Virus record (IMG/VR): IMGVR_UViG_3300042869_000273
DNA: 64,000 nt
Strand: one strand, 5' to 3'
From: an uncultured virus (IMG/VR IMGVR_UViG_3300042869_000273)
Lineage: Duplodnaviria; Heunggongvirae; Uroviricota; Caudoviricetes
Shown: piece by piece, positions 8,045-62,478 of the stretch
How the letters are laid out: the number at the start of each line of letters is the position of its first letter
Numbering within the stretch: the first letter of the stretch is position 1
The notes under the pieces: generated by a model
Databases searched by the model: none
Told to the model about the DNA's origin: nothing
The model's input: the letters and a program-made list of their open reading frames with translations, nothing else
Translations under genes and position numbers: made by a program

Positions 8045-8496
8045 GAAGGTGCATCTCTATTTGTATATCGCATTAAATTTATTTTTTCAGTTAAATAATA
8101 ATTTCGATATGATTCAACTGTATCATTTAACTTACAATGATCTGGCATGGCTAAGGGAGGATCTTGCCAATCTTCTGCTTTAATGTCCCTTGGAAAACTA
8201 GAAAGTGTACCTGAATGATCTAAAATAGTTTTATGTACTTTTCCAAATCGGTGAGTATACTCTTTACCAAGTTCTTCCATAAGAATATAAAGCCACATAT
8301 AATGCTTAATACTACTACGAACCCAAACAGCAGAAGGATGATTGTCATGTGTCTTTTTGTAAGGCCCACCATCACCAACTAGATGATGGGCGGTAGATAA
8401 TAACTGTGCTGACTCAAGAATCATCTTTACTACATGAGAATCATAGTGAGCCTTAGCACATTCTGTTTGGTTTTTGTCTAAATAAAAAATGTTCAT
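8005..8496 (-). CDS. pyrimidine-dimer DNA glycosylase (DenV-like family)
   Basis: MNIFYLD, HVVKMILESAQLLST, H.NHP..VW, AMPD, YRNYY. Confidence 0.75.
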   Translation of the reverse strand: MNIFYLDKNQTECAKAHYDSHVVKMILESAQLLSTAHHLVGDGGPYKKTHDNHPSAVWVRSSIKHYMWLYILMEELGKEYTHRFGKVHKTILDHSGTLSSFPRDIKAEDWQDPPLAMPDHCKLNDTVESYRNYYLTEKINLMRYTNRDAPSWLQKKIATIPCI

Positions 8497-12448: not shown

Positions 12449-12747
12449 AAAATTTCTTCTAAAATACGCATGTAATTAGCGGTATACCATAAACCGCCTT
12501 GATTATGTGGTCTTTGATGTCTATTGTAGTCTTGAATCTCTACCCTGCACCATACTCGCTCTTTGTAACTCAAGTGAGGCGCATTAGGAGTAGAACAGCA
12601 ATGCCACCCAGGGCGATAAGCGTAGCCAACAGTAGGATGCGATTCTGCTCCATATAGAACACCTTTTTGTATTTTCTGTTTACGATTAATAAATAATGGA
12701 CCATAAGTTCCATCTTTACGTTTCTTAAATAGTTTGTATGCAATCAT
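12445..12747 (-). CDS. hypothetical phage protein
   Basis: ORF track; RPGWHCC...APHL. Confidence 0.65.
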   Translation of the reverse strand: MIAYKLFKKRKDGTYGPLFINRKQKIQKGVLYGAESHPTVGYAYRPGWHCCSTPNAPHLSYKERVWCRVEIQDYNRHQRPHNQGGLWYTANYMRILEEIL

Positions 12748-13022
12748 TATGACTTAAAATTTAACCAATCTGGTTCCATAGTTACAAGATGTTGAATTAA
12801 TCCAATGTTTTCTACATCAACTAAATCTGCAATCTCTCTAATAAATTCTCGTTCTCCCATTAATGATTCAATTGTGCAAACAGTATAATCCTCATTATAT
12901 GAAAAATCATCTCCAAGTTTACACAAAAGTAACATTTCAAATTCACTAATAGAATCAGTGAATGTTATGGTGTATTCAGAAGTAACCAAGAACTGCTCCA
13001 ATGAAAGGTACAAATACTCCAA
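12747..13022 (-). CDS. acidic hypothetical protein (true start probably later, near a TTG at ~12989)
   Basis: ORF track; 5' part overlaps the 12976..13155 ORF. Confidence 0.5.
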   Translation of the reverse strand: MEYLYLSLEQFLVTSEYTITFTDSISEFEMLLLCKLGDDFSYNEDYTVCTIESLMGEREFIREIADLVDVENIGLIQHLVTMEPDWLNFKS

Positions 13023-13155
13023 TTATACGACCGATAATCCAACCAACTTGGGTATCAGCATTCATAGCCAGAATAGCTATAAAGTTTGCTATCCATCCAT
13101 AGATAGATGCAACTAAAATAGTTAAGCCAACTAAACCAGCAATAAAATTATTCAT
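12976..13155 (-). CDS. small 2-TM membrane protein, 59 aa (not in ORF track)
   Basis: Manual translation MNNFIAGLVG...GWIANF...GRIIGVFVPFIGAVLGYF; ATGA-coupled to upstream ORF. Confidence 0.65.
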   Translation of the reverse strand: MNNFIAGLVGLTILVASIYGWIANFIAILAMNADTQVGWIIGRIIGVFVPFIGAVLGYF

Positions 13156-13289
13156 TTACCTTGTCCTCGATAGCGTTTGAATGATCGACGTTGTGTCTTG
13201 GTCATTGTTGATGTTTTAGGTCGTGAACCACCTTGTGAAGTTCGTTTAACAATGCCCTTAACTGTTTCTTTTCCAATTTTTTTAGCCAT
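13152..13289 (-). CDS. small basic protein, 45 aa, ending KRYRGQGK (not in ORF track)
   Basis: Manual translation MAKKIGKETVKGIVKRTSQGGSRPKTSTMTKTQRRSFKRYRGQGK. Confidence 0.7.
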   Translation of the reverse strand: MAKKIGKETVKGIVKRTSQGGSRPKTSTMTKTQRRSFKRYRGQGK

Positions 13290-13492
13290 TATAAAATCTC
13301 TTTTACAAATACATTAATTACTTTGTCATATAAATCATGAATTATAAAATCCACAATTACAGGATCACCTAGTTGAACCAATATTACTTTATCACCTTCT
13401 TTAAATAAATAGGGTACATCGTGTGTGCAAATAAACTTATCAGCATTTAAACTCCCATCTGCTGCTGCTACCCAAAAACTTGTTTTAAACAT
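13289..13492 (-). CDS. hypothetical protein
   Basis: ORF track; AAGGA RBS. Confidence 0.6.
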   Translation of the reverse strand: MFKTSFWVAAADGSLNADKFICTHDVPYLFKEGDKVILVQLGDPVIVDFIIHDLYDKVINVFVKEIL

Positions 13493-13513
13493 TTTATCCT
13501 TTTAATTTTAAAG

Positions 13514-13588
13514 TGGTCCCTCTTGTAGGAATCGAACCTACATTAATAACTTAGAAGGTTACTGTTCTATCCATTGAACTAAAGAGAG
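13514..13588 (-). tRNA. tRNA-Arg (anticodon UCU)
   Basis: CTCTCTT/AAGAGGG acceptor stem, anticodon arm GTAAC-CTTCTAA-GTTAT, GGTTCGATTCC T-arm, encoded CCA. Confidence 0.93.
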
Positions 13589-13590
13589 TG

Positions 13591-13665
13591 TGGTGGGATA
13601 AGTAGGAATTGAACCTACACTCAATCGATTATGAGTCGACTGCTTTACCATTAAGCTATTATCCC
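13591..13665 (-). tRNA. tRNA with CAU anticodon, most likely Ile2 (lysidine-modified, reads AUA); Met not excluded
   Basis: GGGATAA/TTATCCC acceptor stem, GTCGA-CTCATAA-TCGAT anticodon arm resembling enterobacterial Ile2 (GACTCATAATCG), encoded CCA. Confidence 0.88.
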
Positions 13666-13667
13666 TG

Positions 13668-13694
13668 ATAAAATAGGAGACCTAAGTCCCCTAG
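13668..13694 (-). terminator. hairpin plus short U-tract downstream of SSB
   Basis: Minus strand TAGGGGAC-TTAG-GTCTCCTA-TTTT. Confidence 0.55.
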
Positions 13695-13701
13695 TTGTTA
13701 A

Positions 13702-14202
13702 TTAATAAGGACTATCTTCAAAGTCATCACTACCATTTGCATCTGCTACCCTTACAATCTCTGTTTCAGTAAGTTCAAAGTCATCACCAGAAGATCTAGG
13801 GATATATTCTTTCAACTTAGTAATCTGCACAGCCATTAGCATAGATGCAATCTTATTCTCTGGTGGATACTCATACTGAAAAATCTTTACATTAGCAATA
13901 GAGCCATTACCAATACTAGCAGGATCAATTGCAGTCAAAGAACCATCAACTACAGTTACTGGTTGATTGTCAGCACCATCTTTCTTTTTAGACTTTTTAC
14001 GAAGAGTTACAGAATAAAATACTCCATCATCATCTTCTACTGTTTTGGGCTTTAAGTTGAGTGCTACCCATTCTGCTTTAACTTTCTTGTCTCGAGTGCG
14101 AATCTGAACATCCCATGTAGGTTGTTCTTTGTTAAATTTAGAATTAGGTCTCTTGGGGTCTAATTGTGCCCAGAATAACTCAACATTTTTTAAAATAGCC
14201 AT
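13702..14202 (-). CDS. single-stranded DNA-binding protein (T7 gp2.5-like)
   Basis: IGNGS.ANV, VQITKLKEY, acidic tail ending in an aromatic residue. Confidence 0.75.
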   Translation of the reverse strand: MAILKNVELFWAQLDPKRPNSKFNKEQPTWDVQIRTRDKKVKAEWVALNLKPKTVEDDDGVFYSVTLRKKSKKKDGADNQPVTVVDGSLTAIDPASIGNGSIANVKIFQYEYPPENKIASMLMAVQITKLKEYIPRSSGDDFELTETEIVRVADANGSDDFEDSPY

Positions 14203-14273
14203 AGGTTTTAGTTTCCTTAATTATAATTTCATTTTTAATATTTAGTATACAATTGATTTTGCATACGTTAGTG

Positions 14274-14293
14274 CTTTAGCGTACCCTGGTAAA
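14274..14293 (-). promoter_or_regulatory. repeated element, copy 1; putative phage-RNAP promoter TTTACCAGGGTACGCTAAAG
   Basis: 19/20 identical to the copies at 31528 and 52400; directly after the RNAP stop codon. Confidence 0.6.
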
Positions 14294-14294
14294 C

Positions 14295-16475
14295 TTAACA
14301 AAAAGCATAATCAGAATACACAATTTGACCGACATCTAGATTACCCCTTTCAGGGATAAGGTCTTTACAGTCAAGTTCAGCAAGCAATTTTTCAAGAGGT
14401 TTAGCCTTGTAAAATTCTACAAACTGTTCTCTTACTCTATAAAACAAATCATCCATACGTCCTGGTAAAGTACCAAAAGAATCATGGACAACAGTCATCT
14501 CATAGGGTGCAGATACAACAGTCATTGTCAAGTGGGCAGCATCAAAGCTATGCACAATATTTGGTGCAGCACCTGTCTTTTGGGAATCTTTATTAATAGT
14601 TGCTTCCTCCCAAGTTTGAAGTTGAACTTTTAATTCTTCTTCACCATACTTCAACTTAGTACGTATAATAGATGGCTTACGATATGCCTGAACAACTGGA
14701 AAGTTAGTTACAGGTGTAGTCCATTTTAAGAACACATCTTTTTCATTAGATCTTTGTGCAAGATCCTGAAACATACGTAGCATAGTAGCTGGTCCTTTTA
14801 GCTTTTCATAACAAGTCTGAAATACTAAATCACCTAGCAATGCACCCCAAAGATGTTCTTTGTCACGAAGATATTCAGACATATCACGAGTGTCATCAAT
14901 AATTTGTTGACCCATGCCATATGCAGTACCACCGTAACCGAGTGTCATTACATTTCTTTTTACTACTTTACGTTGATCTTTAGGATTATCAATTTTAAGC
15001 CAGTAAACAGGAAATAATTTTTCTCGGATTGCTCTATTTTGATTACGCCATTCTTGGGCAGCAGCATAGGCTAATGCTTTTTGCTCTGTCTTTTCAGGTG
15101 CATCAAAATATGCTTTTTGTAGTTCTTTAGCTTTACTATAAACAGAATCAAACTGACCTCTTTCTTCAGGTGTTAATTTGTCTGCCATTTCTTGTAGGTG
15201 TTCCCATACATATCTTGCAATATACATGTAGACATCACCAGGAAGCTCTTGTGGAACTAAATTTACTAATGGGGCAATCTCTTCGTCTTGAGACATGGCT
15301 ACTAGATGTTGAACACCATTATTAGAACCATCAATATACACAGGTAGTGAACATTCATAATCTTCTAATTTATTTCCTAACATCAGCCATTCTTTAATTT
15401 TCTTAAGTTCATTACAAGCAGCTAAAAAAGAGAAGGGAGCATCAGTGCCAGTCCAACCTTGATTAATAGTTGGTTTTTCTGCATAGGATAAGAATAAATT
15501 AATATTCTCATCTACAAATTCTGCTCTCTGTTTTAGCGTAACTTTATCATTTCCAAAAGAATTAGAGGTATGTACTTTTAACCAGAATAAACCATTTTCA
15601 CCAAGAGGTGTAGCTTGATCTAACAAAAGTAAACCTTTTGCATTGTCACTAGATTGCTCATGTAAAAATGCAGTATTAACATATACACGACCACGAAAGT
15701 CAAAATTGTATACGTGATAGAAAGCATTATCTAAATGACTCATAGCTAATTGTTCAATAGCTTCTGCTTCAATCATTAATGATTTCTTTTTCTCTTCATC
15801 AATCTCAGAGTGTAATTTAAAAGGGCTATTGTCATTTTCCTTATGAAGAAAATATTGATATACTTTAAATACATCTTTATTAATCCTCCACCCAGTATCT
15901 TGTAGTTTATTTAAAATGTCATACAATGTTTGTTTATCATTTTTCTTAAACTGTTCTAATGCTGTGGAATGACCTTTCTTAATAATTGGTACTCCTAGAT
16001 TGTTATGGGGTGATTTCCAATATTCAGGTTTTTCTCTCATAGGAAAGATATCTACCTTAGTTTGATCAATTAAACCCCAAAGTTCTTTGATTGCCTTCCA
16101 ATCTTTAACTTGAAAGAAGTAAGCTTGATATTTGCTTTTCTTACCATTCTTGTAAGTATACTTTAGTTTAAAAGAAAGTACGCCACATTCAATATAAGCA
16201 ATGCAAACAAACCAACCTACTTGTGCATCAGAGATAGTATCATTGGGTAAGCTTAACACTTGCCTAACTCTACGACCAATAGTTGCAATAATGTCAACTA
16301 ATGTACCTCTTCTTTCTAAACCTCGTAATACATGGGGATAAGATATATCAACTAATAATTTAGAATCAACATCTTTTAAGTAATGAGTATAAATATTTCG
16401 ATCAGCCCTTAATACAGACTGTCTAGCACTAAGATCAGCTACTAATTTTTCAAGAATAGTTGTCATAGTATTCAC
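14295..16475 (-). CDS. single-subunit T7-like DNA-dependent RNA polymerase
   Basis: DFRGRVY, motif A DGSNNGVQH, motif B RKVVKRNVMTLGYG, APNIVHSFDA, motif C VHDSF, C-terminal YAFC. Confidence 0.95.
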   Translation of the reverse strand: MNTMTTILEKLVADLSARQSVLRADRNIYTHYLKDVDSKLLVDISYPHVLRGLERRGTLVDIIATIGRRVRQVLSLPNDTISDAQVGWFVCIAYIECGVLSFKLKYTYKNGKKSKYQAYFFQVKDWKAIKELWGLIDQTKVDIFPMREKPEYWKSPHNNLGVPIIKKGHSTALEQFKKNDKQTLYDILNKLQDTGWRINKDVFKVYQYFLHKENDNSPFKLHSEIDEEKKKSLMIEAEAIEQLAMSHLDNAFYHVYNFDFRGRVYVNTAFLHEQSSDNAKGLLLLDQATPLGENGLFWLKVHTSNSFGNDKVTLKQRAEFVDENINLFLSYAEKPTINQGWTGTDAPFSFLAACNELKKIKEWLMLGNKLEDYECSLPVYIDGSNNGVQHLVAMSQDEEIAPLVNLVPQELPGDVYMYIARYVWEHLQEMADKLTPEERGQFDSVYSKAKELQKAYFDAPEKTEQKALAYAAAQEWRNQNRAIREKLFPVYWLKIDNPKDQRKVVKRNVMTLGYGGTAYGMGQQIIDDTRDMSEYLRDKEHLWGALLGDLVFQTCYEKLKGPATMLRMFQDLAQRSNEKDVFLKWTTPVTNFPVVQAYRKPSIIRTKLKYGEEELKVQLQTWEEATINKDSQKTGAAPNIVHSFDAAHLTMTVVSAPYEMTVVHDSFGTLPGRMDDLFYRVREQFVEFYKAKPLEKLLAELDCKDLIPERGNLDVGQIVYSDYAFC

Positions 16476-16570
16476 TCTTTTACTTCTACCTCTGCAGCCT
16501 CCATGTAATTAACAACCTTCCGTGCTAAGAAGATTAAACCAACAACCAAACAAGCTTTCCAAACGCTCAT
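16472..16570 (-). CDS. small 32-aa protein (not in ORF track)
   Basis: MSVWKACLVVGLIFLARKVVNYMEAAEVEVKE; AAGGA RBS; stop overlaps the RNAP start. Confidence 0.55.
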   Translation of the reverse strand: MSVWKACLVVGLIFLARKVVNYMEAAEVEVKE

Positions 16571-16608
16571 AAATATCCTTATTATTATTATTATTTTTGA
16601 TAAGAAAA

Positions 16609-16641
16609 GCCAGCTAGATTATACTCCCGCTGGCAGGGAGT
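16609..16641 (-). ncRNA. H-type RNA pseudoknot
   Basis: ACUCCC-U-GCCAGC-GGGAGU-AUAAUCUA-GCUGGC: two perfect 6-bp stems in AT-rich DNA. Confidence 0.7.
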
Positions 16642-16642
16642 G

Positions 16643-16873
16643 TTAAGATTTTTGCTTCTTAATAAAAAGGAAAATCCTAATTAATGCTAATAGCATAAAA
16701 GCACCACCAGCACATTCTTCAATGCTGTTGTTGTTTCCATCTAGTAACACTAATATCACAAAATACATAAACCATTCTACGCATAGAATTTGGAATGTAT
16801 TAAACTTCTTAGTTCTACCTGCTGTTCCTGATTGTGTTGACATGACCAATTCTCTTAAATCGTTGATTAACAT
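16643..16873 (-). CDS. hypothetical membrane protein
   Basis: Two hydrophobic segments; start uncertain. Confidence 0.5.
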   Translation of the reverse strand: MLINDLRELVMSTQSGTAGRTKKFNTFQILCVEWFMYFVILVLLDGNNNSIEECAGGAFMLLALIRIFLFIKKQKS

Positions 16874-17066
16874 TTGCTAAAGGGTTAACTTTCCAGAGAT
16901 CTAGTTCTGCACCCACTTGGTTAAAAAAATCTAAAGAATGTGGCTCATATTTAGCCTTAACATAATTATAAATTTCTTTACCTACATGGTAAACATAACC
17001 TTCTTCATCTGCAATTTTAACTGGTGAAGGATTAAATAAGCATTTATTGCACATTTTAAACTCCAA
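16815..17066 (-). CDS. hypothetical protein
   Basis: ORF track. Confidence 0.5.
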   Translation of the reverse strand: MEFKMCNKCLFNPSPVKIADEEGYVYHVGKEIYNYVKAKYEPHSLDFFNQVGAELDLWKVNPLANVNQRFKRIGHVNTIRNSR

Positions 17067-17316
17067 GTTTCTTATCTACAAAGACTAAGTCTTCAACTGC
17101 TTTAAAAATTCTACGAAAGTCTTCAGCAGACTCTGTAATAACAGAAGCTATAGTTTCCCCAGTCATATAAGCTGATTTAACATCATATAATGAAGGGGAT
17201 ACTATCGCTTGTAAAAAGTCATCATACACAATTACTTCAACAGAGTCAAAGGCATTGTATTGAATGGCTTCAATAGTGTAATCACCTGCTTTTAAAGTTA
17301 GTCTAGGCATAATCAA
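17056..17316 (-). CDS. hypothetical protein
   Basis: ORF track. Confidence 0.6.
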   Translation of the reverse strand: MIMPRLTLKAGDYTIEAIQYNAFDSVEVIVYDDFLQAIVSPSLYDVKSAYMTGETIASVITESAEDFRRIFKAVEDLVFVDKKLGV

Positions 17317-17558
17317 TCCTCAATTAGTTGATCATAAATTGAAGTAAACTCAATGATAGATCCATCAAGTTCAACTTCAGTACACATTCTTTCAATTAAC
17401 TCTTTAGATGTACTAGTAGCATAAACTGCTGGTATACCTTTAGTGTCATTTGAGAAGATATAAGTAAGACCAAATTCCTCTAATGATTCAATGATTTCTT
17501 GCGCTGTACATCCGAAGTTATCGCCATACAGTGGGTTTAACAAAAGAAATTTACTCAT
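17313..17558 (-). CDS. acidic hypothetical protein
   Basis: ORF track; GGAG RBS. Confidence 0.6.
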   Translation of the reverse strand: MSKFLLLNPLYGDNFGCTAQEIIESLEEFGLTYIFSNDTKGIPAVYATSTSKELIERMCTEVELDGSIIEFTSIYDQLIED

Positions 17559-17584
17559 TATAACTCCAAAATTAAAAGAACTTG

Positions 17585-17659
17585 GTACTTACCCCAAGAG
17601 GTCTCTCTGCTGAGAAAGTCTAGTACATACCCTAGAGGGTCTCTCTATCCGAGAAGGCT
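17585..17659 (-). repeat. two tandem imperfect 37-nt units, each folding into two hairpins
   Basis: Plus strand gtacttaccccaagaggtctctctgctgagaaagtct (17585-17621) and gtacataccctagagggtctctctatccgagaaggct (17623-17659). Confidence 0.75.
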
Positions 17660-17772
17660 TAAATGTAAGTTACTATACTTACAAGTTCAGGATTAAAATA
17701 TTTTAAATCTTCTACATAGGCAATAGTTGTAATTAAACTACCATCTGCTTTATTGTAAACAAAATAAATCAT
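17659..17772 (-). CDS. small 37-aa protein (not in ORF track)
   Basis: MIYFVYNKADGSLITTIAYVEDLKYFNPELVSIVTYI; AAGGA RBS. Confidence 0.55.
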   Translation of the reverse strand: MIYFVYNKADGSLITTIAYVEDLKYFNPELVSIVTYI

Positions 17773-17781
17773 TTTAATTCC

Positions 17782-17877
17782 TTATTCAACTAACGCATCT
17801 AAACCATGAAGTAACGCAGCTACTAGCACAAGTGCAATTATAACCGCTAATAAAACATCAAGAATAATTTCTGACAT
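17782..17877 (-). CDS. small 31-aa single-TM protein (not in ORF track)
   Basis: MSEIILDVLLAVIIALVLVAALLHGLDALVE; GAGGA RBS. Confidence 0.55.
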   Translation of the reverse strand: MSEIILDVLLAVIIALVLVAALLHGLDALVE

Positions 17878-17885
17878 ATATCCTC

Positions 17886-18296
17886 TTATTTAGTAAGATT
17901 ATCATAAGCTTTTGAAACACCCTCATGAGCCTTTGCATAACCATAAGTAAATCCAATCACAGCTTTATCTTTAAAATTGCGATCTTCTACTGGCGTTACA
18001 ATTGCTTTCTCAAAAGCTGTAGGTTCATTTGCCTTGTTAAACAAAGCTAATTTATCACTACGATCTTTTTCGTCAAATGCACATACTGCTACATTGCCAG
18101 TAGTTGCAATAGTACCTGTTATAATACTTGTTGCAATTATTGGTCCTGCGCCAGGGATAAGCAATGAAGCTGCTGCACCTGCTAATGCACCATAAGTACC
18201 TACCTTGAGAACCTCTTTAGGCTTACAAAATGCTTCACTTGCAAAAGAAGAAACACTAGCAATGCTCAAAGACAAAACAATTAAGAACTTTTTCAT
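17886..18296 (-). CDS. signal-peptide protein with glycine-zipper-like hydrophobic hairpin
   Basis: MKKFLIVLSLSIASVSSFA; GALAGAAA...GAGPIIA. Confidence 0.65.
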   Translation of the reverse strand: MKKFLIVLSLSIASVSSFASEAFCKPKEVLKVGTYGALAGAAASLLIPGAGPIIATSIITGTIATTGNVAVCAFDEKDRSDKLALFNKANEPTAFEKAIVTPVEDRNFKDKAVIGFTYGYAKAHEGVSKAYDNLTK

Positions 18297-18324
18297 TTAA
18301 AAACTCCGTTAGTTAACAAAAAAT

Positions 18325-18376
18325 ACACAAGACCGTTTCTCAACGGTTTCGTCTCATAAAGACTCATCAGTTGTGC
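18325..18376 (-). ncRNA. hammerhead ribozyme (type I)
   Basis: GCACAA CUGAUGA GUCU-UUAUG-AGAC GAAA CCGUU-GAGA-AACGG UC^UUGUGU: complete core and three paired stems. Confidence 0.92.
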
Positions 18377-18630
18377 TGCTTATTACATACTGCCATTACC
18401 TTATAAGGGTCTACTGGCTTAATAGTAAAAGGATCTTTTGCTTTCTTGATTTCTTTATCAAGGGCATAGACTGAAACTTCTAAAGCATCCATTTGGCATA
18501 TTGTTTTAGCCTTATCAGTTGCTTTAATTATTCCATCTTCAATTAACATATCTACGTACTTCTCATGCTTAGATGCCATAGCACTAGTAGACAATACTGC
18601 GATTGATACTGCAATAATTAGCTTTAACAT
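18367..18630 (-). CDS. signal-peptide hypothetical protein
   Basis: MLKLIIAVSIAVLSTSAMA; two Cys; AAGGA RBS; TGA stop lies within the hammerhead CUGAUGA. Confidence 0.65.
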   Translation of the reverse strand: MLKLIIAVSIAVLSTSAMASKHEKYVDMLIEDGIIKATDKAKTICQMDALEVSVYALDKEIKKAKDPFTIKPVDPYKVMAVCNKQHN

Positions 18631-18722
18631 TTGATTTCCTTTAAAAGTTTACTTTGATTTGAGTACTCTATCTAATGATATTTCTTCATTATAGATACGT
18701 CATTTTTCTCACTTTTTTTGAT

Positions 18723-18747
18723 AAAAAAGGCCACCTTTTAGGTGACC
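18723..18747 (-). terminator. rho-independent terminator after pcyX, before the small-gene block
   Basis: GGTCACC-TAAAA-GGTGGCC-TTTTTT. Confidence 0.8.
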
Positions 18748-18750
18748 ATT

Positions 18751-18837
18751 TTAATGTACTTCGCAGTACCATTTGATATATTCTTTAGTATACCAATAAA
18801 ATATTGGAGGTACAGTTAGTAGTGCAATGTATTCCAT
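18751..18837 (-). CDS. possible 28-aa peptide (not in ORF track)
   Basis: MEYIALLTVPPIFYWYTKEYIKWYCEVH; GAGG RBS; fills the gap from pcyX to the terminator. Confidence 0.4.
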   Translation of the reverse strand: MEYIALLTVPPIFYWYTKEYIKWYCEVH

Positions 18838-18838
18838 A

Positions 18839-19525
18839 TTATACCTCTGGAAAAAGACATTCTTGAATAAACTTGTTTACTGTTTCTTCATCAAAGCCAA
18901 GAGACTGCATTACTCTAGGTGTATGAGGATTTTTCTTTTGATTTTGACAATACCAATTTTGTTGTTCAGTAAAATTAAAATTTTCTATCTTATAATCATA
19001 ACTATGCCGACTACTTAGCTTATGTAGTGTATCTAAATACTTTTCTAATGATCTTTTAGATAGCTCGAGTATTTCATTTAACTCAAACTCAGAATTAATA
19101 TTACCAGCAGCTACCATTGAAGAACTAAATATATTCTTAGCCCACTCAGGTAGTTCTCTAGGTTTACTCCATTCTTGATCTTTTACTTCATTAGCAAACC
19201 ATTTAACTAGTTCGTGATCTTTATTACCACAAGGACTAAAATCATGGAATGCTCCAGTAACTTTATTAGTCCCAGCAATAAGATCAAATCCGTAGATAGG
19301 TGCATCACTGTAGACCTTTGGAAATACACAGAGGTGCATCATGTAAAGCTTTTTATTATCTCTAGCATCTACTACATCTAAGTGTGCTCTACGAACATGA
19401 GCATTAACATAGATATTATTTTCCCAAGGGAATGGATGAGTCTCTTCAGATAAGAAAGTTCTTGACTCTAATATATCTTTAAAGTCTTGTGTATGCTTCT
19501 CAAGTTTACTGAATATTATGCTCAT
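18839..19525 (-). CDS. pcyX: ferredoxin-dependent bilin reductase, PcyX-type
   Basis: RRAHLDVVD, H.CVFP, PIYGFD.IAG..KVTGAFHDFSP, RELPEWA.NIFS, YC..QKKNPHT, CLFPE. Confidence 0.8.
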   Translation of the reverse strand: MSIIFSKLEKHTQDFKDILESRTFLSEETHPFPWENNIYVNAHVRRAHLDVVDARDNKKLYMMHLCVFPKVYSDAPIYGFDLIAGTNKVTGAFHDFSPCGNKDHELVKWFANEVKDQEWSKPRELPEWAKNIFSSSMVAAGNINSEFELNEILELSKRSLEKYLDTLHKLSSRHSYDYKIENFNFTEQQNWYCQNQKKNPHTPRVMQSLGFDEETVNKFIQECLFPEV

Positions 19526-20042: not shown

Positions 20043-20053
20043 TTAAACTCCTT

Positions 20054-20084
20054 AATAAAACAGGGAACCGAAGTTCCCCGTTTG
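20054..20084 (-). terminator. rho-independent terminator with cUUCGg loop
   Basis: CGGGGAAC-TTCG-GTTCCCTG-TTTT. Confidence 0.85.
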
Positions 20085-20089
20085 TTTAC

Positions 20090-21706: not shown

Positions 21707-21714
21707 AATATTCC

Positions 21715-22713: not shown

Positions 22714-22724
22714 TTAAAATCTCC

Positions 22725-22955
22725 TTAAGTAGCAGAAGAAGATTCTCTTGCCCTAGCTAGTTCTGTTCTCTCTGCAGCAAGTTCCTCTTCAGTCATTGCA
22801 CGAATAGTACCATTAGCCTTGATAAGTCTAAGACCCATTAAGCTGTCTGCACAAGTTTCAAAACCTTCTAAATTAGTACCTTCAATTGGGTTTAAATAGC
22901 AGATTTCACTTTTATTTTCAGAATTAAATTTTACGTACATTTTAACGATCTCCAT
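22725..22955 (-). CDS. hypothetical protein
   Basis: ORF track. Confidence 0.55.
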   Translation of the reverse strand: MEIVKMYVKFNSENKSEICYLNPIEGTNLEGFETCADSLMGLRLIKANGTIRAMTEEELAAERTELARARESSSAT

Positions 22956-31501: not shown

Positions 31502-31549
31502 TTACCTAGGGGACGCCTAGGATCTCTCTTTAGCGTCCCCTGGTAAATG
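31502..31549 (-). promoter_or_regulatory. repeated element, copy 2, within an inverted repeat
   Basis: 31521-31549 is identical (29 bp) to 52393-52421; arms ttacc(t)aggggacgc / gcgtcccctggtaa. Confidence 0.65.
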
Positions 31550-38261: not shown

Positions 38262-38277
38262 ACTTTTCTCCTAAATT

Positions 38278-44926: not shown

Positions 44927-44930
44927 AATA

Positions 44931-52375: not shown

Positions 52376-52421
52376 TACCAAGGGGAGCCTCAGATCTCTC
52401 TTTAGCGTCCCCTGGTAAATG
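52376..52421 (-). promoter_or_regulatory. repeated element, copy 3, within an imperfect inverted repeat
   Basis: Minus strand CATTTACCAGGGGACGCTAAAGAGAGATC, followed by GCTCCCCTTGGTA. Confidence 0.65.
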
Positions 52422-56144: not shown

Positions 56145-59100
56145 TTACGGTCCAATACCATACCAATCCATACCTTTAGGTATAGGAGCCAGTATATCTT
56201 TTCTCGTAATCTTGTTTCGAGGATTTATTAAGCCATCCTGAATAGCCTTTTGTCTTAAAGAGTTATAGGTTGCTCTTGACAACCCTTCTTCTCTAAGAGC
56301 AAGTAAAGTTTTCTCTATTGTATCACCTTCTAAGGCATCTGCATAGATTTCTCTAAGAGCTACCTTTGACTTAGCTGCTTGTCCGATGTTTGTGAAGAAA
56401 GCATCATGAATCGTAGCGGTTTCAACACCGTTTTTACGACCCCATAAATGATATCTTCTTACAATAGCGGCATCATTCATATGGTTGCCATTAACACCCA
56501 TACCAATACCTGCTCTCATTAAACTTGATTTTCCTAGAAGTGAAGCATCTTCTGCTCGATCTTCGTAAATATTACGGACCATCCTATTAGCCTCTTTGTC
56601 ATAGAACTCAATGCTAGTTTGGATTTTAGGTCTGTATCTCTGGTATAAAGTCTTACCATCAAATGTTACCCAAGGTACATCGACCTTCTGAGTTTCATCA
56701 ACGTAAGCTTTAGCAGCCTCTTTCCAGAATTGTACGAATTTTTGAGTTACTGGTGCTCTCTCAGCTAATCTCCGAGACATGATCTCAGAGACAGATTTGA
56801 AGTCTTGAGGACCAATTAGTCCTTTACGAGCATTCATTAACTTATCGACAAACGCTTCTACGTCTGGGTGAGAATCACGAGCATGTGATAAAAGTTCCTG
56901 CCCCACAGGGGTTTCACCTTCAACAACCTCATTCAACTCACGTTTTAATTGTTTAAGACCAAATACAACATTATCAGCACCTAGCCTATCTGCTTCTTTG
57001 ATCTTTGCATCTATAATATTAGTTACACCACGAAGTTCTTCACGGGTAACAACAGTATATCCTTTTGTTTCTAATACTGAAGCAAATTTAGCCTCAATAT
57101 TAGCCGCCTGTGTTGCCTTACCAGCGCCATAGAAAGAAACCATGTTCTGAGCCTTAGCGGCTTTTTGGAGATCAGTCCATTGAACATTAGCATCTCTTAA
57201 TCCTTGTATCTTTTGAAACTCTGGATCAGACACTGTATCCATTGCTACTAAGTCATACAAACGATTCTTTTGAAGTGTAGGTAACACATTTGAGTTAATT
57301 GAAATATCTCTATCGCCTGTACTCAATCCGATGATTTGAGCACCAGAGGATGAGGCATCATTCTCAATCATTAATTTTGTTTTATAAGTTGATAGCTTTT
57401 TTAAATCAGTAAAGTCACCATTTACATGATCATATATTCTAGCATATTCAATAGCCAGCCTAGATATCTTTGGGATTTCTTCAGCTTCCTGAGAACGAAT
57501 AATAGGGTGATCTAAGAACTCTCGAATACGTCTATCACGTTGAGTTGTTTCTCTCATAAGCCTACCAAGACTTAAAATATCTTTTTGATTTCTCATAAAG
57601 ATTTCCATTCTACCTGCTTGTGTTAATGCCTCTGTAGCTGGACCTATCATAGAACCAGTTTGAATCATTAGCTCCTGAACAATTTCAGGTGTAACAGCTT
57701 CTGCCTTAGCAGTGTTTAAGAATGGACGAACAACTTCACCTCCAGTAGGAGTAAGAAACCCTTGATAATAAACACGTCCACGACCATCAATATTAGCAAC
57801 TACGCTAAATGGTTTTCCAGTATCTCTATGAAACTTTACAGTTTGCATAAAGCTATAGCCTTGATCACCACGAGTTAAAATAAGTTTTCTAAAATCATTT
57901 AAGTCATCATACTTCTTTACGTTACCACGAGGATCTCTAAAGCGTACAACATCTTCCATAAATCCAGCATACTCATTATCAACTTCATATTTAAATGACA
58001 TAGTATGATTAAGCATATCAGCAAAATCTTTATCAATTAATAACTTATCATAGTTAGCATTAGCTCTACGGGTAATAACAGTAATACCTGTATTTTTACC
58101 TCTCGCATCAAAATAAGTTTTCTCACCTGGCCTAACATAAATCTTATCTCTATCATTAATAATACCAATTCGTTGGCTTACAATTAATGCTCGATTAATT
58201 CTTTGTAAATCTAGCATATCTTTATCTAAGATTTGCACCTCACGACTAACAGTATCTCTCCAAGGACCACTGGCACGACCTGTCTCTAAGTCTACTACTG
58301 AGCGCCTAGTCTTTCCACGTTTAACAACTCGGATATACCCAGAGTCTTTTAATGCAGTAAGTATTTCAGAACCGTCTTCATGATAATCTTTTAGCGTAGG
58401 TTTAAAAAATGGGAAGTTAGGTAATTTCCAGTTAGCTCTTAATTCTTTACCAATATTGATAGCAAGTGTATCATAGTCAGTAGATTTACCATCAGCAACA
58501 ACTGACATAACTCGTGATAAAGAATCAACAATAAATTTATCGTTTGTTTTATCTTCAATATATTGTTGTAGATAACTTTGTTTATTACCACGATACAAGA
58601 ATTCGAGATCTAATATTCTTCTCCAAGCTTCTTTCTTTTCTCTAATATATTTTGTTATAAGACCTTCTTTAGGCTTATTACGGTCTAACCATAATGCCCC
58701 ACCAGGAATTTCTTCTCTAACAAAGGTCTCTAATTTCTTACTAAATGATTTAGAGTCTCTTGTTAATGGACCTCTAAACCAAGTATACAATGGTGTTCTA
58801 CCAGTGTATAATAATTTACGAGCTAAGGGTCTACCATGCCTTTCAGCCCAAGCATCCTTATACCGTTGATTATCTAATGTGTTGTTTATGATGTCATCAA
58901 AGGTATAGTACTTTCCAAATATCTGTACTTTAGCTGGTTCTCCTGCAACTCCATAAGAATCAAACTGAGAGGATCTAGCACGAGAGCGTCTATCTAAAAT
59001 ACGACTTGTATTTACTACAGAGTATTGCATCTCTCCACGAACAACGTTCATGAAATTAACCCAAGGTTGTTTATCATTATTGTATCGTTCAAATACAACA

Positions 59101-60566
59101 CGTAGATTCTCAGTAACAGCAGTTTGCTGATTAACAGAAACAGAGTCATCAAGTGTTTCTACAAAATCCCTAATCCATACTTTTTGATCTTGAGATAAAA
59201 CTTTAGAATTTCTAACGAAGTCAAGTCTTTCTTGTAAAGTAAGAAAATCAGGATCATATAGCAAGGTAGAACTTTGTTCACCAGTAAATGGATCAAAGCT
59301 ATTATTACGTTCATCAAACTCGTTGTTAGACCGAATCCTGACAGATCGCTTACCTGCTAATGTAGTACCTCTATAATCAGTTAAGGATATAGCTTGTGCT
59401 AGATTATCTGAATCAGCAATATACATCTCTCTGAGTTGTCTCTGTGCTTCTGTATTCTTTAACAATTCATTAGGTCTAGATATATTAAGCTCAAATATAT
59501 TTTCTTCTGCTTTGCTAACAGCTGTTTGCCTTGTTGGAAACCATAGCGTACGAGCATTATCTAATTTTCTTAAAGCAGCAATGCTTAGTTGATTACCTTT
59601 AGTTGTAGTAAATGCTTTAACATCTAATGCACCTTTTTGTAGTAGTCCTGCTTTTTCCTCGCTACCTAAATGTTTAACTTGAACATTCATAGGTTGACGT
59701 TTAAGCCAAATACTGTATGTTTCAACAGGAGGAGGAGCACCATTAAGTTCAACTGGATTAGTTTCTTTTAGCTTATTAGCTTTAAGTCTAGTATCAGCAG
59801 TTTCATCAAGAGACCTTAGTAATTGATCTTTACTTTTTAAGATAGGGATCATTGAACTACGACAATTCCAATGTAATGGTGGACGAAATCTTATGTCATT
59901 TATTTTATATACTTCGCCATCATGGTGAGCACAAATTGCTGATGTTCTATTATCTAGTACAGCAGTAAACCGATAACCAATCAATAATTCTTCATTACGA
60001 CTCATTACAAGATTCATTGCAGTAGATTGAGTGTTAGTAATAGCAGTTCTAACAAGAGATTTAGCTTGTACTTCGCTTAGTGTAGTAGTTTTAATAACTT
60101 CATTAATAATCTCTTTAATAGGTTTACCATCTGCTAAACCACCCTTGATTTTACCATCTATCCTTGCTAGTTCAGCAGTACCAATAGAATCAAAATGTTC
60201 TCTTAAAGTTTTAGATGCAGTAACATTAGGCCCAATTAGTTTAGGAATAGCATCACTAGCCCTAGGTCTTTGAACTCTAAAAAATTTACCTGCACTTTTA
60301 TCTAAGTTATTAGAATGAAAATTAACAGCAGCATCCGCATAATCAGTAACAGAATTATTCACAATCATGTGAAGTTCTTTAGTGGCTCTTGTAACTTCTG
60401 GTTTAACATCAGATTTGATATTATTTTTTAATAAGTCTCTAAGTCTCTTTTGATGTCTACGGATACCTCTTGAAACATTTGTAGATGTCTCTGCCTCATA
60501 TAACCTTGTATCAGCTAAGTGCTGAATAATACGATCATAGAGATCTGTATTAATTGGTGTTGGCAT
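56145..60566 (-). CDS. MuF (SPP1 gp7-like head morphogenesis) domain fused to a single-subunit RNA polymerase
   Basis: N-terminal FTAVLDNRTSAIC...DG...PPLHWNCRS; C-terminal DGRGRVYY, NDASSSGAQ, KAQNMVSFYG, NHMNDA, IHDAF. Confidence 0.88.
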   Translation of the reverse strand: MPTPINTDLYDRIIQHLADTRLYEAETSTNVSRGIRRHQKRLRDLLKNNIKSDVKPEVTRATKELHMIVNNSVTDYADAAVNFHSNNLDKSAGKFFRVQRPRASDAIPKLIGPNVTASKTLREHFDSIGTAELARIDGKIKGGLADGKPIKEIINEVIKTTTLSEVQAKSLVRTAITNTQSTAMNLVMSRNEELLIGYRFTAVLDNRTSAICAHHDGEVYKINDIRFRPPLHWNCRSSMIPILKSKDQLLRSLDETADTRLKANKLKETNPVELNGAPPPVETYSIWLKRQPMNVQVKHLGSEEKAGLLQKGALDVKAFTTTKGNQLSIAALRKLDNARTLWFPTRQTAVSKAEENIFELNISRPNELLKNTEAQRQLREMYIADSDNLAQAISLTDYRGTTLAGKRSVRIRSNNEFDERNNSFDPFTGEQSSTLLYDPDFLTLQERLDFVRNSKVLSQDQKVWIRDFVETLDDSVSVNQQTAVTENLRVVFERYNNDKQPWVNFMNVVRGEMQYSVVNTSRILDRRSRARSSQFDSYGVAGEPAKVQIFGKYYTFDDIINNTLDNQRYKDAWAERHGRPLARKLLYTGRTPLYTWFRGPLTRDSKSFSKKLETFVREEIPGGALWLDRNKPKEGLITKYIREKKEAWRRILDLEFLYRGNKQSYLQQYIEDKTNDKFIVDSLSRVMSVVADGKSTDYDTLAINIGKELRANWKLPNFPFFKPTLKDYHEDGSEILTALKDSGYIRVVKRGKTRRSVVDLETGRASGPWRDTVSREVQILDKDMLDLQRINRALIVSQRIGIINDRDKIYVRPGEKTYFDARGKNTGITVITRRANANYDKLLIDKDFADMLNHTMSFKYEVDNEYAGFMEDVVRFRDPRGNVKKYDDLNDFRKLILTRGDQGYSFMQTVKFHRDTGKPFSVVANIDGRGRVYYQGFLTPTGGEVVRPFLNTAKAEAVTPEIVQELMIQTGSMIGPATEALTQAGRMEIFMRNQKDILSLGRLMRETTQRDRRIREFLDHPIIRSQEAEEIPKISRLAIEYARIYDHVNGDFTDLKKLSTYKTKLMIENDASSSGAQIIGLSTGDRDISINSNVLPTLQKNRLYDLVAMDTVSDPEFQKIQGLRDANVQWTDLQKAAKAQNMVSFYGAGKATQAANIEAKFASVLETKGYTVVTREELRGVTNIIDAKIKEADRLGADNVVFGLKQLKRELNEVVEGETPVGQELLSHARDSHPDVEAFVDKLMNARKGLIGPQDFKSVSEIMSRRLAERAPVTQKFVQFWKEAAKAYVDETQKVDVPWVTFDGKTLYQRYRPKIQTSIEFYDKEANRMVRNIYEDRAEDASLLGKSSLMRAGIGMGVNGNHMNDAAIVRRYHLWGRKNGVETATIHDAFFTNIGQAAKSKVALREIYADALEGDTIEKTLLALREEGLSRATYNSLRQKAIQDGLINPRNKITRKDILAPIPKGMDWYGIGP

Positions 60567-60632: not shown

Positions 60633-60848
60633 TTATTCAGGTTTATTAGGAAATACTACTTCACCTTCAGGAGGATTGTTCATAAGCTCAGTAATAGCAG
60701 ACCTATACTCTGCCCACTGGTTTCTAGTAACTCCACTTAAATCACTCGATGCTATCCACTCTGTTTTAGCTAGTATTTCAGTACACTTATCTATTAGATC
60801 AGTATTATCCTGTTGTGGTGCTACACGTTTAATTATTTTAGGCTCCAT
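60633..60848 (-). CDS. small fibre-chaperone-like protein (likely start MEPK at 60848)
   Basis: L..TEW...D.....WAEYR.A......FP.KP, like the C-terminus of 21260..21706. Confidence 0.55.
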   Translation of the reverse strand: MEPKIIKRVAPQQDNTDLIDKCTEILAKTEWIASSDLSGVTRNQWAEYRSAITELMNNPPEGEVVFPNKPE

Positions 60849-62478
60849 TATTATTCCGATCATCATTATTATTATTATTATTATTGTCAGGCCGCATATT
60901 ATCTGTATTAGAGATAGATGAGTCAATGCTCATTGCTTTTGTGTCTACAAGAGGATCACTCTGGATTTCTGCTACACCCTCTTCATCATTATATTCTGAA
61001 GGTAGTACATCATTGAACTTAGCAATAGAGATAAAGGTAGAACGTGGAATAATACCTTGTTGATACCATTCTGTAACTAGCCTCATCCAATCTGCGCCTA
61101 CTGGTGTAGGGTTAAAGTCAGCACTTAATGTAAACTTAATATCTGTTGGAAGAACCTCAATATTATATTTCCACTTAAGCATTACTGTAATAATCTGTCT
61201 CATTGTTTCTGAGATACGAGTATTAAGCATACCTAACTGAGCAGTCTGGGCGGCATTACGGATTTCTAAACTTACACCTGACTCACCTGAAGAACCTTCG
61301 GGGGAGAGCATACGAATGCCCATACGAGCCATCTCTTCGATAGTAGCGGCAATACTTGCCTCCATATCTTTTAGAGCACCTGTAGGTGTATCTAGTGCTT
61401 TGATATCATCTCCTGCACGAAGTTTAATCCATGAACCTAAACCAGCATCAACAATATTCTCAAACTCTTCATCAGTCATATCTGACATAACTACTGGAGT
61501 GTATGTTGCAGCACCATAGAGTAAATGGTTACGACGGCTAATTTTATTGTATAGAGCAATCTCACGATCAATTAAAGATTGTAGAATAGGTTCTACAGGA
61601 TCAATCTGACCATTTAATGGATAAGCTGGAATGAAATTCATTCTCTCATTATTCATTAAAGGTATTTCTGTACGTGTCTTGTTCCATGCTGCATTAGCAT
61701 TATCTACTTGATACTTAGACGTAACATTACCGTTGATAACGTTAACAGACTCGTTAGTATCTCTTGTGTAGGTATCTACAACAAGCAATCCTGATTCATC
61801 TAGGTAGTAATGAGTAACTGTATCTACATAGTCTGGATGGAATTGATTTTTAGAATAGTCTTCCATATAGTAACGGAAGAGTAAGCTAGTTAATACTTGT
61901 TTATTAGTATTACGGTCTTGACCTCTACGCCAGTTAATAATATTCTCTGCTTGGATGAGCATAACATAAGGTGAAAGAGCCTTAGCTTCTTCCATTGTTA
62001 ATGCGTCTGGATTAGCAACTGTAGGATAGTCTACTAAACACCAAGCTCTAGATGACTGTAGTTCTTCCCAGATAGCAGCATCTAAGAATCCATGTAGTGA
62101 AGTCCCATCAGAGCCAAAAGAATTACGAATCCAATCTTCAGTTCCTTCAGGAAATAAGTTGTCTGGTAATTCAATTGATGCTTGTTTACGTAGTAATCCA
62201 CCTACAAGTACTTTAGCATACTGTGCTGTTAGTCCTGGTAACTCACCTTCAGCACGATAAAAATTGTACTGTTGAGAACTCATTGTAGGAGAAAATGGTA
62301 ATAGTAAGTTACTAAAATTTACTGGGTCAATTGTATCATCGTATGCTCTTGCATGCGTCTGCCCATTTAGAACAGCTCTAGCTCTTTCCCAGAGTGGCCG
62401 CATAGACTCGTATGCAGCATTAGGGTCCCCAAGGCTTTTTGTCTTAGCCTTTGATGGGGTCGTTGTTAGGTTTGCCAT
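60838..62478 (-). CDS. portal protein
   Basis: Y..Y..RA, LVDYP, PY..L..AENIINW; size and position before MuF/scaffold/capsid. Confidence 0.85.
   Translation of the reverse strand: MANLTTTPSKAKTKSLGDPNAAYESMRPLWERARAVLNGQTHARAYDDTIDPVNFSNLLLPFSPTMSSQQYNFYRAEGELPGLTAQYAKVLVGGLLRKQASIELPDNLFPEGTEDWIRNSFGSDGTSLHGFLDAAIWEELQSSRAWCLVDYPTVANPDALTMEEAKALSPYVMLIQAENIINWRRGQDRNTNKQVLTSLLFRYYMEDYSKNQFHPDYVDTVTHYYLDESGLLVVDTYTRDTNESVNVINGNVTSKYQVDNANAAWNKTRTEIPLMNNERMNFIPAYPLNGQIDPVEPILQSLIDREIALYNKISRRNHLLYGAATYTPVVMSDMTDEEFENIVDAGLGSWIKLRAGDDIKALDTPTGALKDMEASIAATIEEMARMGIRMLSPEGSSGESGVSLEIRNAAQTAQLGMLNTRISETMRQIITVMLKWKYNIEVLPTDIKFTLSADFNPTPVGADWMRLVTEWYQQGIIPRSTFISIAKFNDVLPSEYNDEEGVAEIQSDPLVDTKAMSIDSSISNTDNMRPDNNNNNNNDDRNNNGA

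Follow-up and report, generated by a model that had tools for sequence, protein, structure and literature searches.

This report concerns a 64,000-nt stretch, called the window below, of IMG/VR record IMGVR_UViG_3300042869_000273, an uncultured virus of the Caudoviricetes with 35% G+C. The window carries two genes for single-subunit RNA polymerases (RNAPs) of the T7 fold: a free enzyme, RNAP2 (14295..16475), and MuF-RNAP (56145..60566), in which an SPP1-gp7/MuF head domain is joined to a T7-fold polymerase and which is a candidate virion RNAP. Both enzymes have intact catalytic residues and folds, their co-occurrence is conserved in relatives, and two classes of promoter-like motif, here named class E and class M, occupy defined positions around their genes. 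We consider it fairly probable that the two enzymes form a relay, in which packaged MuF-RNAP transcribes RNAP2 from class E and RNAP2 then transcribes from class M, the MuF-RNAP gene included. Coordinates are window positions and strands are minus unless stated. Relatives are coded with G numbers (genomes) and L numbers (loci), L001 and L002 being the DSS3_VP1 records.

RNAP2 is 726 aa long when read from a GTG. Its relatives align to it from residue 4 to 7 and are mostly 722 to 724 aa long, which makes the ATG at codon 4 (16466) the probable start and 723 aa the probable length. RNAP2 matches the Pfam family RNA_pol (PF00940) with an E-value of 1.7e-79 and the T7 RNAP chain 1aro with an E-value of 1.7e-61. 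Its peptides DFRGR, DGSNNGVQH, RKVVKRNVMTLGYGG and HDSFGT align opposite the catalytic motifs of T7 RNAP, for which the reference residues are D537 (motif A), R627, K631, Y639 and G640 (motif B), H811 and D812 (motif C) and D421–R425 (motif T/DxxGR). In 44 sequences of the RNAP2 family, residues D382, R502, K506, Y514, G515, H664, D665, D259, R261 and R263 are invariant. The AlphaFold2 (AF2) model (predicted local distance difference test, pLDDT, 89.8; predicted template modeling score, pTM, 0.82) matches most T7 RNAP chains with VIA Z scores of 36 to 45. Against 1cez_A, the T7 promoter complex, Z is 36.3 and the root-mean-square deviation (rmsd) is 3.7 over 656 aligned residues with 29% identity. 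Model residues 5 to 726 align to T7 residues 75 to 883, the N-terminal domain included, and the hairpin at 599 to 627 aligns to the T7 specificity hairpin (739 to 770). Judged by the model, RNAP2 is T7 RNAP without roughly its first 74 residues. The original prediction had described this gene as a T7-like RNAP with canonical motifs that is shorter than T7 RNAP (883 aa), and the Pfam match, the motif alignment and the model bear out both points. The short length is a trait of the RNAP2 family, which comprises 308 clusters at an E-value of 1e-10 or better; the 120 relatives listed from these clusters are 45 to 92% identical to RNAP2 and 633 to 768 aa long, nearly all of them 706 to 768 aa. In G020, a distant 81.5-kb relative, the RNAP2 gene (L033, G020:C1:39604-42345) carries an interruption of about 517 nt that falls between query residues 512 and 515, where motif B has its tyrosine-glycine.

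MuF-RNAP (1473 aa) is encoded between the portal and scaffold genes. Its MuF or head-morphogenesis part covers residues 3 to 339 (59550..60560) and its polymerase module residues ~554 to 1473 (56148..58907). Phage_Mu_F (PF04233) is found at residues 136 to 239 (E 4.5e-12, 47.1 bits vs a cut-off of 29.6), and TIGR01641 (phageSPP1_gp7) scores 55.7 bits vs a cut-off of 39.65. The PHROG matches cover both parts, phrog_241 (head morphogenesis, residues 3 to 339) with E 2.4e-52 and phrog_414 (RNA polymerase) with E 1.3e-22, and RNA_pol PF00940 is found at residues 1054 to 1424 with 26.7 bits (cut-off 22). In the AF2 model of residues 380 to 1473 (pLDDT 80.2, pTM 0.71), model residues 175 to 1093 align to T7 RNAP 30 to 883. 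Z scores against T7 chains are mostly 25 to 30 (8dh5_M, Z 29.8, rmsd 3.5 over 520 aligned residues; 3e2e_A, Z 25.4, rmsd 5.3 over 675; the outlier is 1aro_P with Z 18.5). Mitochondrial RNAPs give Z 19 to 27 and the N4 virion RNAP (vRNAP) gives Z 14 to 17 (2po4, Z 16.9, rmsd 7.1 over 645). D1070, K1138, Y1146, G1147, H1387, D1388 and the DxRGR motif (D927-R929-G930-R931) are invariant in 40 MuF-RNAP sequences; catalytic residues are invariant in 40 to 46 family members overall. By these alignments the polymerase of MuF-RNAP is divergent with its catalytic residues intact. The MuF and polymerase parts are separated by a 200-residue region with several low-confidence stretches. The gene adjoins the portal gene in the head module and is followed by the genes for scaffold and major head protein, an order identical in DSS3_VP1. 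It belongs to the late module.

The fusion is found in 244 clusters at 90% identity in protein collections (E 1e-5 or better), and it has 133 representatives at 50% identity among 1.84 billion. Every full-length match to the module is preceded by about 515 to 700 N-terminal residues, and no complete stand-alone module was seen among the 1.84 billion representatives; shorter matches begin at their own first residues, as in fragments cut by contig ends. Among phage records, 1251 match the fusion, with at least 80% coverage in only four (two DSS3_VP1 records, DSS3_PM1 and EBPR siphovirus 1), the rest matching the MuF part only. The polymerase module alone gave four full matches in 175 records, the others being marginal matches to T7-group enzymes over 20% of the query. 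The head morphogenesis proteins of pelagiphages Kolga and Aegir match the MuF part only (query residues 5 to 341). In EBPR siphovirus 1 the fused polymerase gene is interrupted and has an HNH endonuclease gene inside it, and in G018 the fused gene is split; homing elements seem to target both polymerase genes. In the available text of two papers, MuF fusions are described as effectors that are packaged in the head and injected, MuF fusions to other enzymes are listed with none to a polymerase among them, and a survey of polyvalent proteins finds N4-like virion RNAP modules restricted to N4-like phages (PMC5512222, PMC9503650).

The two polymerases are 21% identical (BLASTP E 0.003). Their profiles are collinear over 621 columns (E 0.0022, probability 13%) and the catalytic motifs align. 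In a 23-row tree each family forms one clade, with support of 98 for RNAP2 and 100 for MuF-RNAP, the MuF family sitting on a long stem; the deep forks among the RNAP2 family, Autographiviridae, Kolga and the MuF family lack resolution. This is the phylogeny called for in the original prediction, and its claim that RNAP2 diverges from the fused enzyme agrees with both the identity and the separate clades. By the alignments and the tree, the two polymerases belong to distinct, old lineages and did not arise by recent duplication. In the tree the MuF family joins N4 gp16 on very long branches, which may reflect long-branch attraction, and no origin was drawn from this placement.

The nearest record, G001, carries both polymerase genes. 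Among 26 IMG/VR records with an RNAP2 relative, 12 match the fusion, three of these (Kolga-like) in the MuF part only. Completeness reaches at least 90% in five of the RNAP2-bearing IMG/VR records, and each of these matches MuF-RNAP, a distant one (33% RNAP2 identity) included. DSS3_VP1 carries both polymerases, with 50% identity to RNAP2 and 48% (47.9%) to the fusion over its full length. In pelagiphage Kolga, an RNAP2 relative of 28% identity is accompanied by a MuF protein that lacks a polymerase.

Class E is a promoter-like element of the form GTGAGAAAA-N9-CTATAAT-GAAGAAA at 18681..18712. It has a single copy in the window (0 expected), with a start predicted, on the model of T7, at about 18687. 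An intrinsic-terminator-like hairpin with a T-run (18729..18747; 8 pairs, 5 of them G-C, TTTTTT tail) lies just upstream and closes the late operon, which ends in auxiliary metabolic genes. Class E heads a unit of small genes whose last gene is RNAP2. The early block between them (16643..18630) consists of six open reading frames (ORFs) of 76 to 136 aa and some shorter ones, none of which has a Pfam or PHROG match at threshold. The order terminator then class E is also found in G005, G006, G010 and DSS3_VP1. G006 (two copies) and G010 have the class E 25-mer without a mismatch, and G005 has it with one. DSS3_VP1 has two class E sites with four mismatches, all in the spacer, and the first of them directly follows the tape-measure gene and a terminator.

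In 18 of 32 loci a strict class E pattern occurs on the RNAP2 strand, 1.6 to 2.7 kb upstream of the gene, and a relaxed pattern adds two more. Where clade loci extend at least 1.5 kb upstream, class E is found in 20 of 21. The Kolga-like loci have none (0/5, with one poor relaxed match in L036), and class E is absent from the Kolga genome as well. Scanning 2.9 million viral contigs of IMG/VR with an exact degenerate pattern gave 50 stretches. Downstream sequence of at least 2.6 kb is available for 30 loci; in 25 of these, RNAP2 (32 to 100% identity) follows class E on the same strand, and in two of the remaining five it lies farther downstream. Genomes carry one or two copies, in each case upstream of RNAP2. 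The same pattern has two matches in the genomes of 185,579 bacterial and archaeal species (596 Gb), neither near a polymerase, which is chance level. Class E, with about 22 specified positions, hardly changes among relatives even where RNAP2 identity falls to 32%. The predicted initial transcribed sequence GAAGAAA is kept in phages of 35% and 47.5% G+C and is conserved as strongly as the upstream block. A small TATC-N-GATA inverted repeat after class E varies in step among relatives. Folding gave no support for N4-style hairpin promoters, the class E region, the class M leaders and a tandem element folding no better than shuffles (z 0.62, 0.52, -1.22 and 1.05); for the class E region z was 0.52 vs shuffles, computed with RNA parameters and not for supercoiled DNA. 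The tandem element consists of two 38-nt units in the middle of the early block (17559-17660), TTCTC..AGAGAGACC plus a small inverted repeat. It is shared with G006, where a compensatory change from CTAG/CTAG to CCAG/CTGG is seen, and is absent from G005 and G010.

Class M is a 20-mer that was found by reading the intergenic gaps, a de novo repeat search having been swamped by coding repeats of the tail fibers. With up to one mismatch it has three matches in the window, all on the coding strand, vs 0.02 expected. They were scored with a position weight matrix (PWM) built from 21 sites in four genomes, the window's own sites being part of the training set. The deviant or "middle" variant, TTTACCAGGGTACGCTAAAG (14274..14293; 1 mismatch, 34.6 bits), begins 1 nt past the RNAP2 stop. 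Two consensus forms (0 mismatches, 45.4 bits each) are intergenic: one in the tail/fiber module (31528..31547), 55 nt before the next ORF, and one in the head-tail module (52400..52419), 60 nt before the next ORF. By analogy with T7, class M transcripts would start at 14274 (21 nt past the RNAP2 stop codon), 31528 and 52400. The fourth best coding-strand score (13.9 bits) marks a possible weak class M-like site inside a replication-module ORF (8171..8198), and the opposite-strand maximum is 4.9 bits. No class E or class M site lies between the MuF-RNAP gene and the upstream end of the window.

Placement of class M after RNAP2 was examined in 24 of the 32 loci. Each of the 11 examined loci with 83% identity or more has a deviant copy 17 to 18 nt past the RNAP2 end. 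A locus of 65% identity has two copies with a changed core, and 12 more distant loci have no copy at that place. G005, G006 and G010 have five or six coding-strand sites each; a scan of the DSS3_VP1 coding strand found 16 sites of a related but different consensus. A motif search in Kolga and G020 yielded AT-rich noise or nothing promoter-like. The 3' end of class M is identical to T7 phi1.1A at six of eight positions up to the annotated start. Since phi1.1A lies 26 nt after T7 gene 1, the placement of class M after RNAP2 mirrors T7.

RNAP2 cannot make its own first transcript, and for this reason class E has to be read by the host RNAP or by something brought in. The fused polymerase appears to be the only conserved candidate for a brought-in reader. 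In the relay that we propose, MuF-RNAP would be expressed late as part of the structural module, dock in the capsid by way of its SPP1-gp7/MuF domain and leave the capsid together with the DNA. In the new cell it would initiate at the single class E promoter and transcribe the small early genes and RNAP2. RNAP2 would then initiate at class M; the deviant copy after its own gene would drive the replication genes, and the consensus copies would drive the structural genes including MuF-RNAP, closing the loop. Packaging and injection, the pairing of each enzyme with its motif, the start sites and independence from the host RNAP are what we infer from this arrangement, and the phage may run its gene program largely without the host polymerase.

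The polymerase sequences are in keeping with the proposed pairing. The MuF-RNAP hairpin aligned to the T7 specificity loop is invariant at 7 of 24 positions and the N-terminal hairpin at 11 of 35, both above the rest of the module. The RNAP2 equivalents of these hairpins have 0/29 and 0/24 invariant positions, average or below for RNAP2. High hairpin conservation in MuF-RNAP and low conservation in RNAP2 would thus match an invariant class E and a variable class M. A cascade from MuF-RNAP through the early block and RNAP2 to the middle and late genes was the central idea of the original prediction. The layout agrees with it, in that class E heads the RNAP2 unit and class M lies after RNAP2 and before the structural genes; the injection step and the reader of class E are its conjectural parts. 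RNAP2 does lie after the small-ORF block and before the replication genes, as the prediction had it, though its "SSB" (single-stranded DNA-binding protein) for the next ORF is only a lead.

The other possible reader of class E is the host enzyme. In a start of the T7 or Xp10 style, host sigma-70 RNAP would read class E through its TATAAT and make RNAP2, which takes over; MuF-RNAP would be redundant at the start or would serve a different purpose once injected, for example the priming of replication or the transcription of a short unrecognized unit. We regard such a start as rather unlikely. Class E contains a perfect TATAAT and an A-rich upstream tract that a host sigma-70 RNAP could read, but no -35-like hexamer is found 16 to 18 nt upstream, the usable spacing. 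Conserved first transcribed bases are usual for promoters of phage single-subunit polymerases and unusual for sigma-70 promoters. About 22 class E positions including GAAGAAA stayed fixed while the polymerases diverged to 32 to 50% identity and the G+C content by 12 points, which speaks against a host reader, as does the chance-level frequency of class E in 596 Gb of prokaryote genomes. T7 does have a host promoter just before gene 1, and a sigma-70-like site (TTAACA-17-TATAAT, 11/12) lies at 16618..16646, about 140 nt upstream of RNAP2. This site is found in two lineages, the window and G006, and is absent from G005 and G010, where small ORFs fill the space. A sigma-70 scan of 12500-23000 returned 44 sites vs 44.7 in shuffles and is not discriminating. 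In Kolga, which has the RNAP2 relative only, the early region is AT-rich and divergent and contains TTGACT and TATAAT-like boxes, as a host-driven start would have it. Such a start in the phage of the window would, however, leave a catalytically intact and strongly conserved fused polymerase without a conserved promoter.

It is also conceivable, but in our view improbable, that MuF-RNAP is not delivered as an active enzyme. It could act late in the producing cell, in packaging-coupled transcription or on late genes, or only the MuF part could stay in the virion after cleavage, for which the low-confidence linker of 200 residues would offer a site. Packaging is deduced from domain homology and gene position alone, which leaves room for this explanation. 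Yet the constant presence of about 515 to 700 residues before the module in full-length matches points to a selected link with the head domain, and the published view of MuF fusions, as far as the available text goes, is one of C-terminal enzyme delivery. A late-acting MuF-RNAP would also duplicate RNAP2, whose class M sites already precede late genes. A swapped assignment, with class M as the promoter of the injected MuF-RNAP and class E as that of RNAP2, draws on the fact that the pairing is deduced and that both motifs end T7-like in CTA(T/A)A-G, but is very improbable: an injected enzyme on class M would turn on the structural genes at once and leave RNAP2 with only its own operon, class M tracks the variability of RNAP2 and class E the more conserved MuF-RNAP hairpins, and class M follows RNAP2 as phi1.1A follows T7 gene 1.

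Several observations weigh against the relay from MuF-RNAP to RNAP2, in addition to the TATAAT with its A-tract and the sigma-70-like site. The profile-profile support for homology between the two enzymes is formally weak at a probability of 13%. EBPR siphovirus 1 has the fused enzyme and no RNAP2 match in 50,000 of its 54,466 bases. Class E gave no match in L027, a clade locus with 4 kb of upstream sequence, nor in G020, the distant record with two polymerases. The Kolga-like relatives, which have neither fused polymerase nor class E, may offer the same natural experiment as that described for Thermus phage P23-45; they are distant (28 to 30% RNAP2 identity), and the motif loss may be plain divergence. 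The class M scores come from a matrix whose training set includes the window's own sites. The main text of the DSS3_VP1 paper mentions no RNA polymerase, MuF or virion proteins. The same three subjects go without mention in a 2025 paper on the deoxyuridine (dU) pathway.

Virion RNAPs are known in three forms: the giant N4 enzyme, the two-barrel enzymes of crAss-like phages and P23-45, and the multisubunit enzymes of jumbo phages. If the relay holds, a MuF-borne T7-fold polymerase would be a further, independently evolved solution, and it would show that an enzyme of more than 900 residues can be delivered by MuF. With 244 clusters and 133 representatives the family is not rare, and its cultured, non-pathogenic member DSS3_VP1, which grows on Ruegeria pomeroyi, makes the idea directly testable. 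The fusion has been overlooked because public records label it as head morphogenesis only. The two compact and apparently orthogonal polymerase/promoter pairs would be of interest for transcription tools. A wider claim is more tentative, and we would put it forward as a possibility rather than an expectation: that the whole marine and freshwater long-tailed clade, including the dU-DNA Naomviridae, is transcriptionally autonomous. A portal-associated, MuF-tethered T7-fold polymerase would travel with the leading DNA end, fire from one near-invariant promoter during genome entry and leave all other transcription to a second T7-fold polymerase. Virion RNAPs would then have been invented independently a third time, the N4 and two-barrel types being the other two. 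There may be a tie to genomes with uracil in place of thymine, which host RNAP may read poorly; a possible dU-DNA link would give such phages a reason to avoid the host RNAP.

All ORFs of at least 100 aa in the window except two are on the minus strand. In the direction of transcription, the 5' part holds a holin-like gene, PhoH, the portal gene, the 1473-aa fusion, scaffold and major head protein. The portal gene (60838..62478; phrog_145 portal, E 2e-58; DUF4055) is directly upstream of MuF-RNAP. Head-tail genes, a 2045-aa tape measure protein and very large tail and fiber proteins follow. The tape measure protein (44931-51068) contains a Pesticin/lysozyme-type domain (PF16754, residues 1075 to 1217, E 3.6e-29), presumably a tail-delivered wall-degrading activity. 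A 2114-aa protein (31567-37911) with about seven repeats of 330 to 345 nt has no family match, and a 906-aa fiber-like protein (27832-30552) has periodic repeats of 21 nt (7 residues). Two 2-oxoglutarate-Fe(II) oxygenases come next and precede a pair of heme oxygenase (PF01126) and ferredoxin-dependent bilin reductase (PF05996) at the end of the late operon, the whole group covering 18839-20042 with 20090-21263; the heme oxygenase and bilin reductase pair is also found in G005. A bilin pathway with no other cyanophage hallmark is unusual for a phage. The small-ORF block and the 726-aa polymerase follow.

Downstream of RNAP2 are a possible SSB, two tRNAs, a family A DNA polymerase, a dCMP-deaminase-type enzyme and an exonuclease, and the order ends with a primase-helicase, ribonucleotide reductase and ClpP. 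The first gene past the class M site (13702..14202) encodes a protein of 166 aa with no match in Pfam and PHROG searches. Its language-model neighbors at 0.97 are clusters with PF24083, PF10991 or PF21265 on 12 to 27% of members, partly phage ssDNA-binding families, so a possible ssDNA-binding protein is only a lead. The genes for tRNA-Arg(TCT) and tRNA-Met(CAT) at 13514-13665 follow a terminator-like hairpin and lie between this gene and the next small ORFs; an Rfam scan of the window found nothing beyond these two tRNAs. The dCMP-deaminase-family protein (7631-8044) is 36% identical to the DSS3_VP1 enzyme, which has been shown to deaminate dCTP for dU-DNA synthesis according to the available text of PMC12697855. 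A tblastn search of the window with three other DSS3_VP1 proteins gave no match. A SegE-type GIY-YIG homing endonuclease gene (6330-6776) sits between the primase-helicase and exonuclease genes. The ClpP-family protease gene (2-706), downstream of ribonucleotide reductase and far from the head genes, runs past the low end of the window.

The large uncultured clade to which the phage belongs is related to DSS3_VP1 and DSS3_PM1, roseophages of the Naomviridae with dU-DNA. Freshwater metatranscriptome contigs from two runs contained 12% and 6% of the sampled words, as short pieces of 88 to 99% likeness that carry no start or end information. In DSS3_VP1 (L001/L002), G006, G010 and G020 the first 127 nt (107 in G006) occur again at the record end; these terminal repeats of 107 to 127 nt may be assembly overlap.

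DSS3_VP1 and DSS3_PM1 are the closest cultured relatives. They share the gene order, two class E copies and 16 class M-like sites, and differ in G+C content (47.5% vs 35%), in the class M consensus and in having no annotated bilin genes. Their records label the fusion "head morphogenesis" or "minor head protein-like".

T7 (Autographiviridae) resembles the present system in the fold and all catalytic motifs of RNAP2 and in the position of a phage promoter directly behind the polymerase gene. In both, the DNA-metabolism genes have a deviant promoter ahead of them and the structural genes have consensus ones, and we take the class II and class III promoters of T7 to parallel the deviant and consensus class M. 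The differences are that RNAP2 lacks about the first 74 residues, that the phage is siphovirus-like with 75 to 80 kb, that its polymerase unit is headed by class E and not by recognizable host promoters, and that it has a second, capsid-linked polymerase.

N4 (Schitoviridae) uses gp50, its virion RNAP, then RNAPII (gp15/gp16) and then the host RNAP, a relay described in the available text of a review (PMC4496689). The likeness is that a single-subunit RNAP thought to be packaged starts the program and that a second T7-family RNAP is in the early unit, both enzymes of each phage being of the T7 fold. The "N4-like logic" of the original prediction holds to the extent of this analogy. The fused enzyme is nearer to T7 and mitochondrial RNAPs (mostly Z 22 to 30, one T7 chain 18.5) than to N4 vRNAP (Z 14 to 17), and MuF-RNAP does not fit the gp50-type architecture: gp50 has about 3500 aa (34523-45025 in the N4 record) with a central polymerase domain between regions for injection and encapsidation, while MuF-RNAP, with 1473 aa, begins with MuF and ends with the polymerase. 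N4-like phages gave no match to the polymerase module by tblastn at E 0.01 among 50,697 records. The N4 promoters are short DNA hairpins, whereas class E shows no significant hairpin when folded with RNA parameters. RNAP2 is one chain with an N-terminal domain, whereas the second N4 enzyme is split. The late genes here carry class M sites and give no pointer to an N4-type late phase under host RNAP, and the virion is long-tailed.

AR9, a jumbo phage with uracil-DNA, and phiKZ-like phages have a program independent of host RNAP with injected and newly made phage RNAPs, and AR9 also has dU-DNA, according to the available text of PMC5449584, PMC5312081 and PMC10612078. Their enzymes are multisubunit and beta/beta'-like and their genomes exceed 200 kb, whereas both enzymes here are single-subunit and T7-fold.

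Closer in logic than N4 is Thermus phage P23-45. As described in the available text of PMC10770324, its vRNAP is fused to the tape measure protein and transcribes a short pre-early unit encoding the non-virion RNAP (nvRNAP) gp64; transcription involves two different promoter motifs, the first of which is missing from relatives that do not have the fusion. Like the phage studied here, P23-45 is long-tailed, with a vRNAP fused to a virion structural protein and a relay layout. It differs, by the same text, in its two-barrel RNAPs related to cellular ones, in its tape measure carrier in place of MuF, and in its late genes, which depend on host RNAP. Layout features of a vRNAP-to-nvRNAP relay are found in the present phage as well: the candidate vRNAP gene lies among late structural genes, RNAP2 is in the first transcription unit, and of the two promoter-like classes class E is limited to the early unit and is absent from relatives without the fused polymerase. 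A literature search covering neither subscription papers nor supplements found no paper on a MuF-RNAP fusion or a two-polymerase program in Naomviridae. A relay in a long-tailed phage is thus already known from P23-45, and what is new is the T7 fold at both steps, the MuF carrier and the clade.

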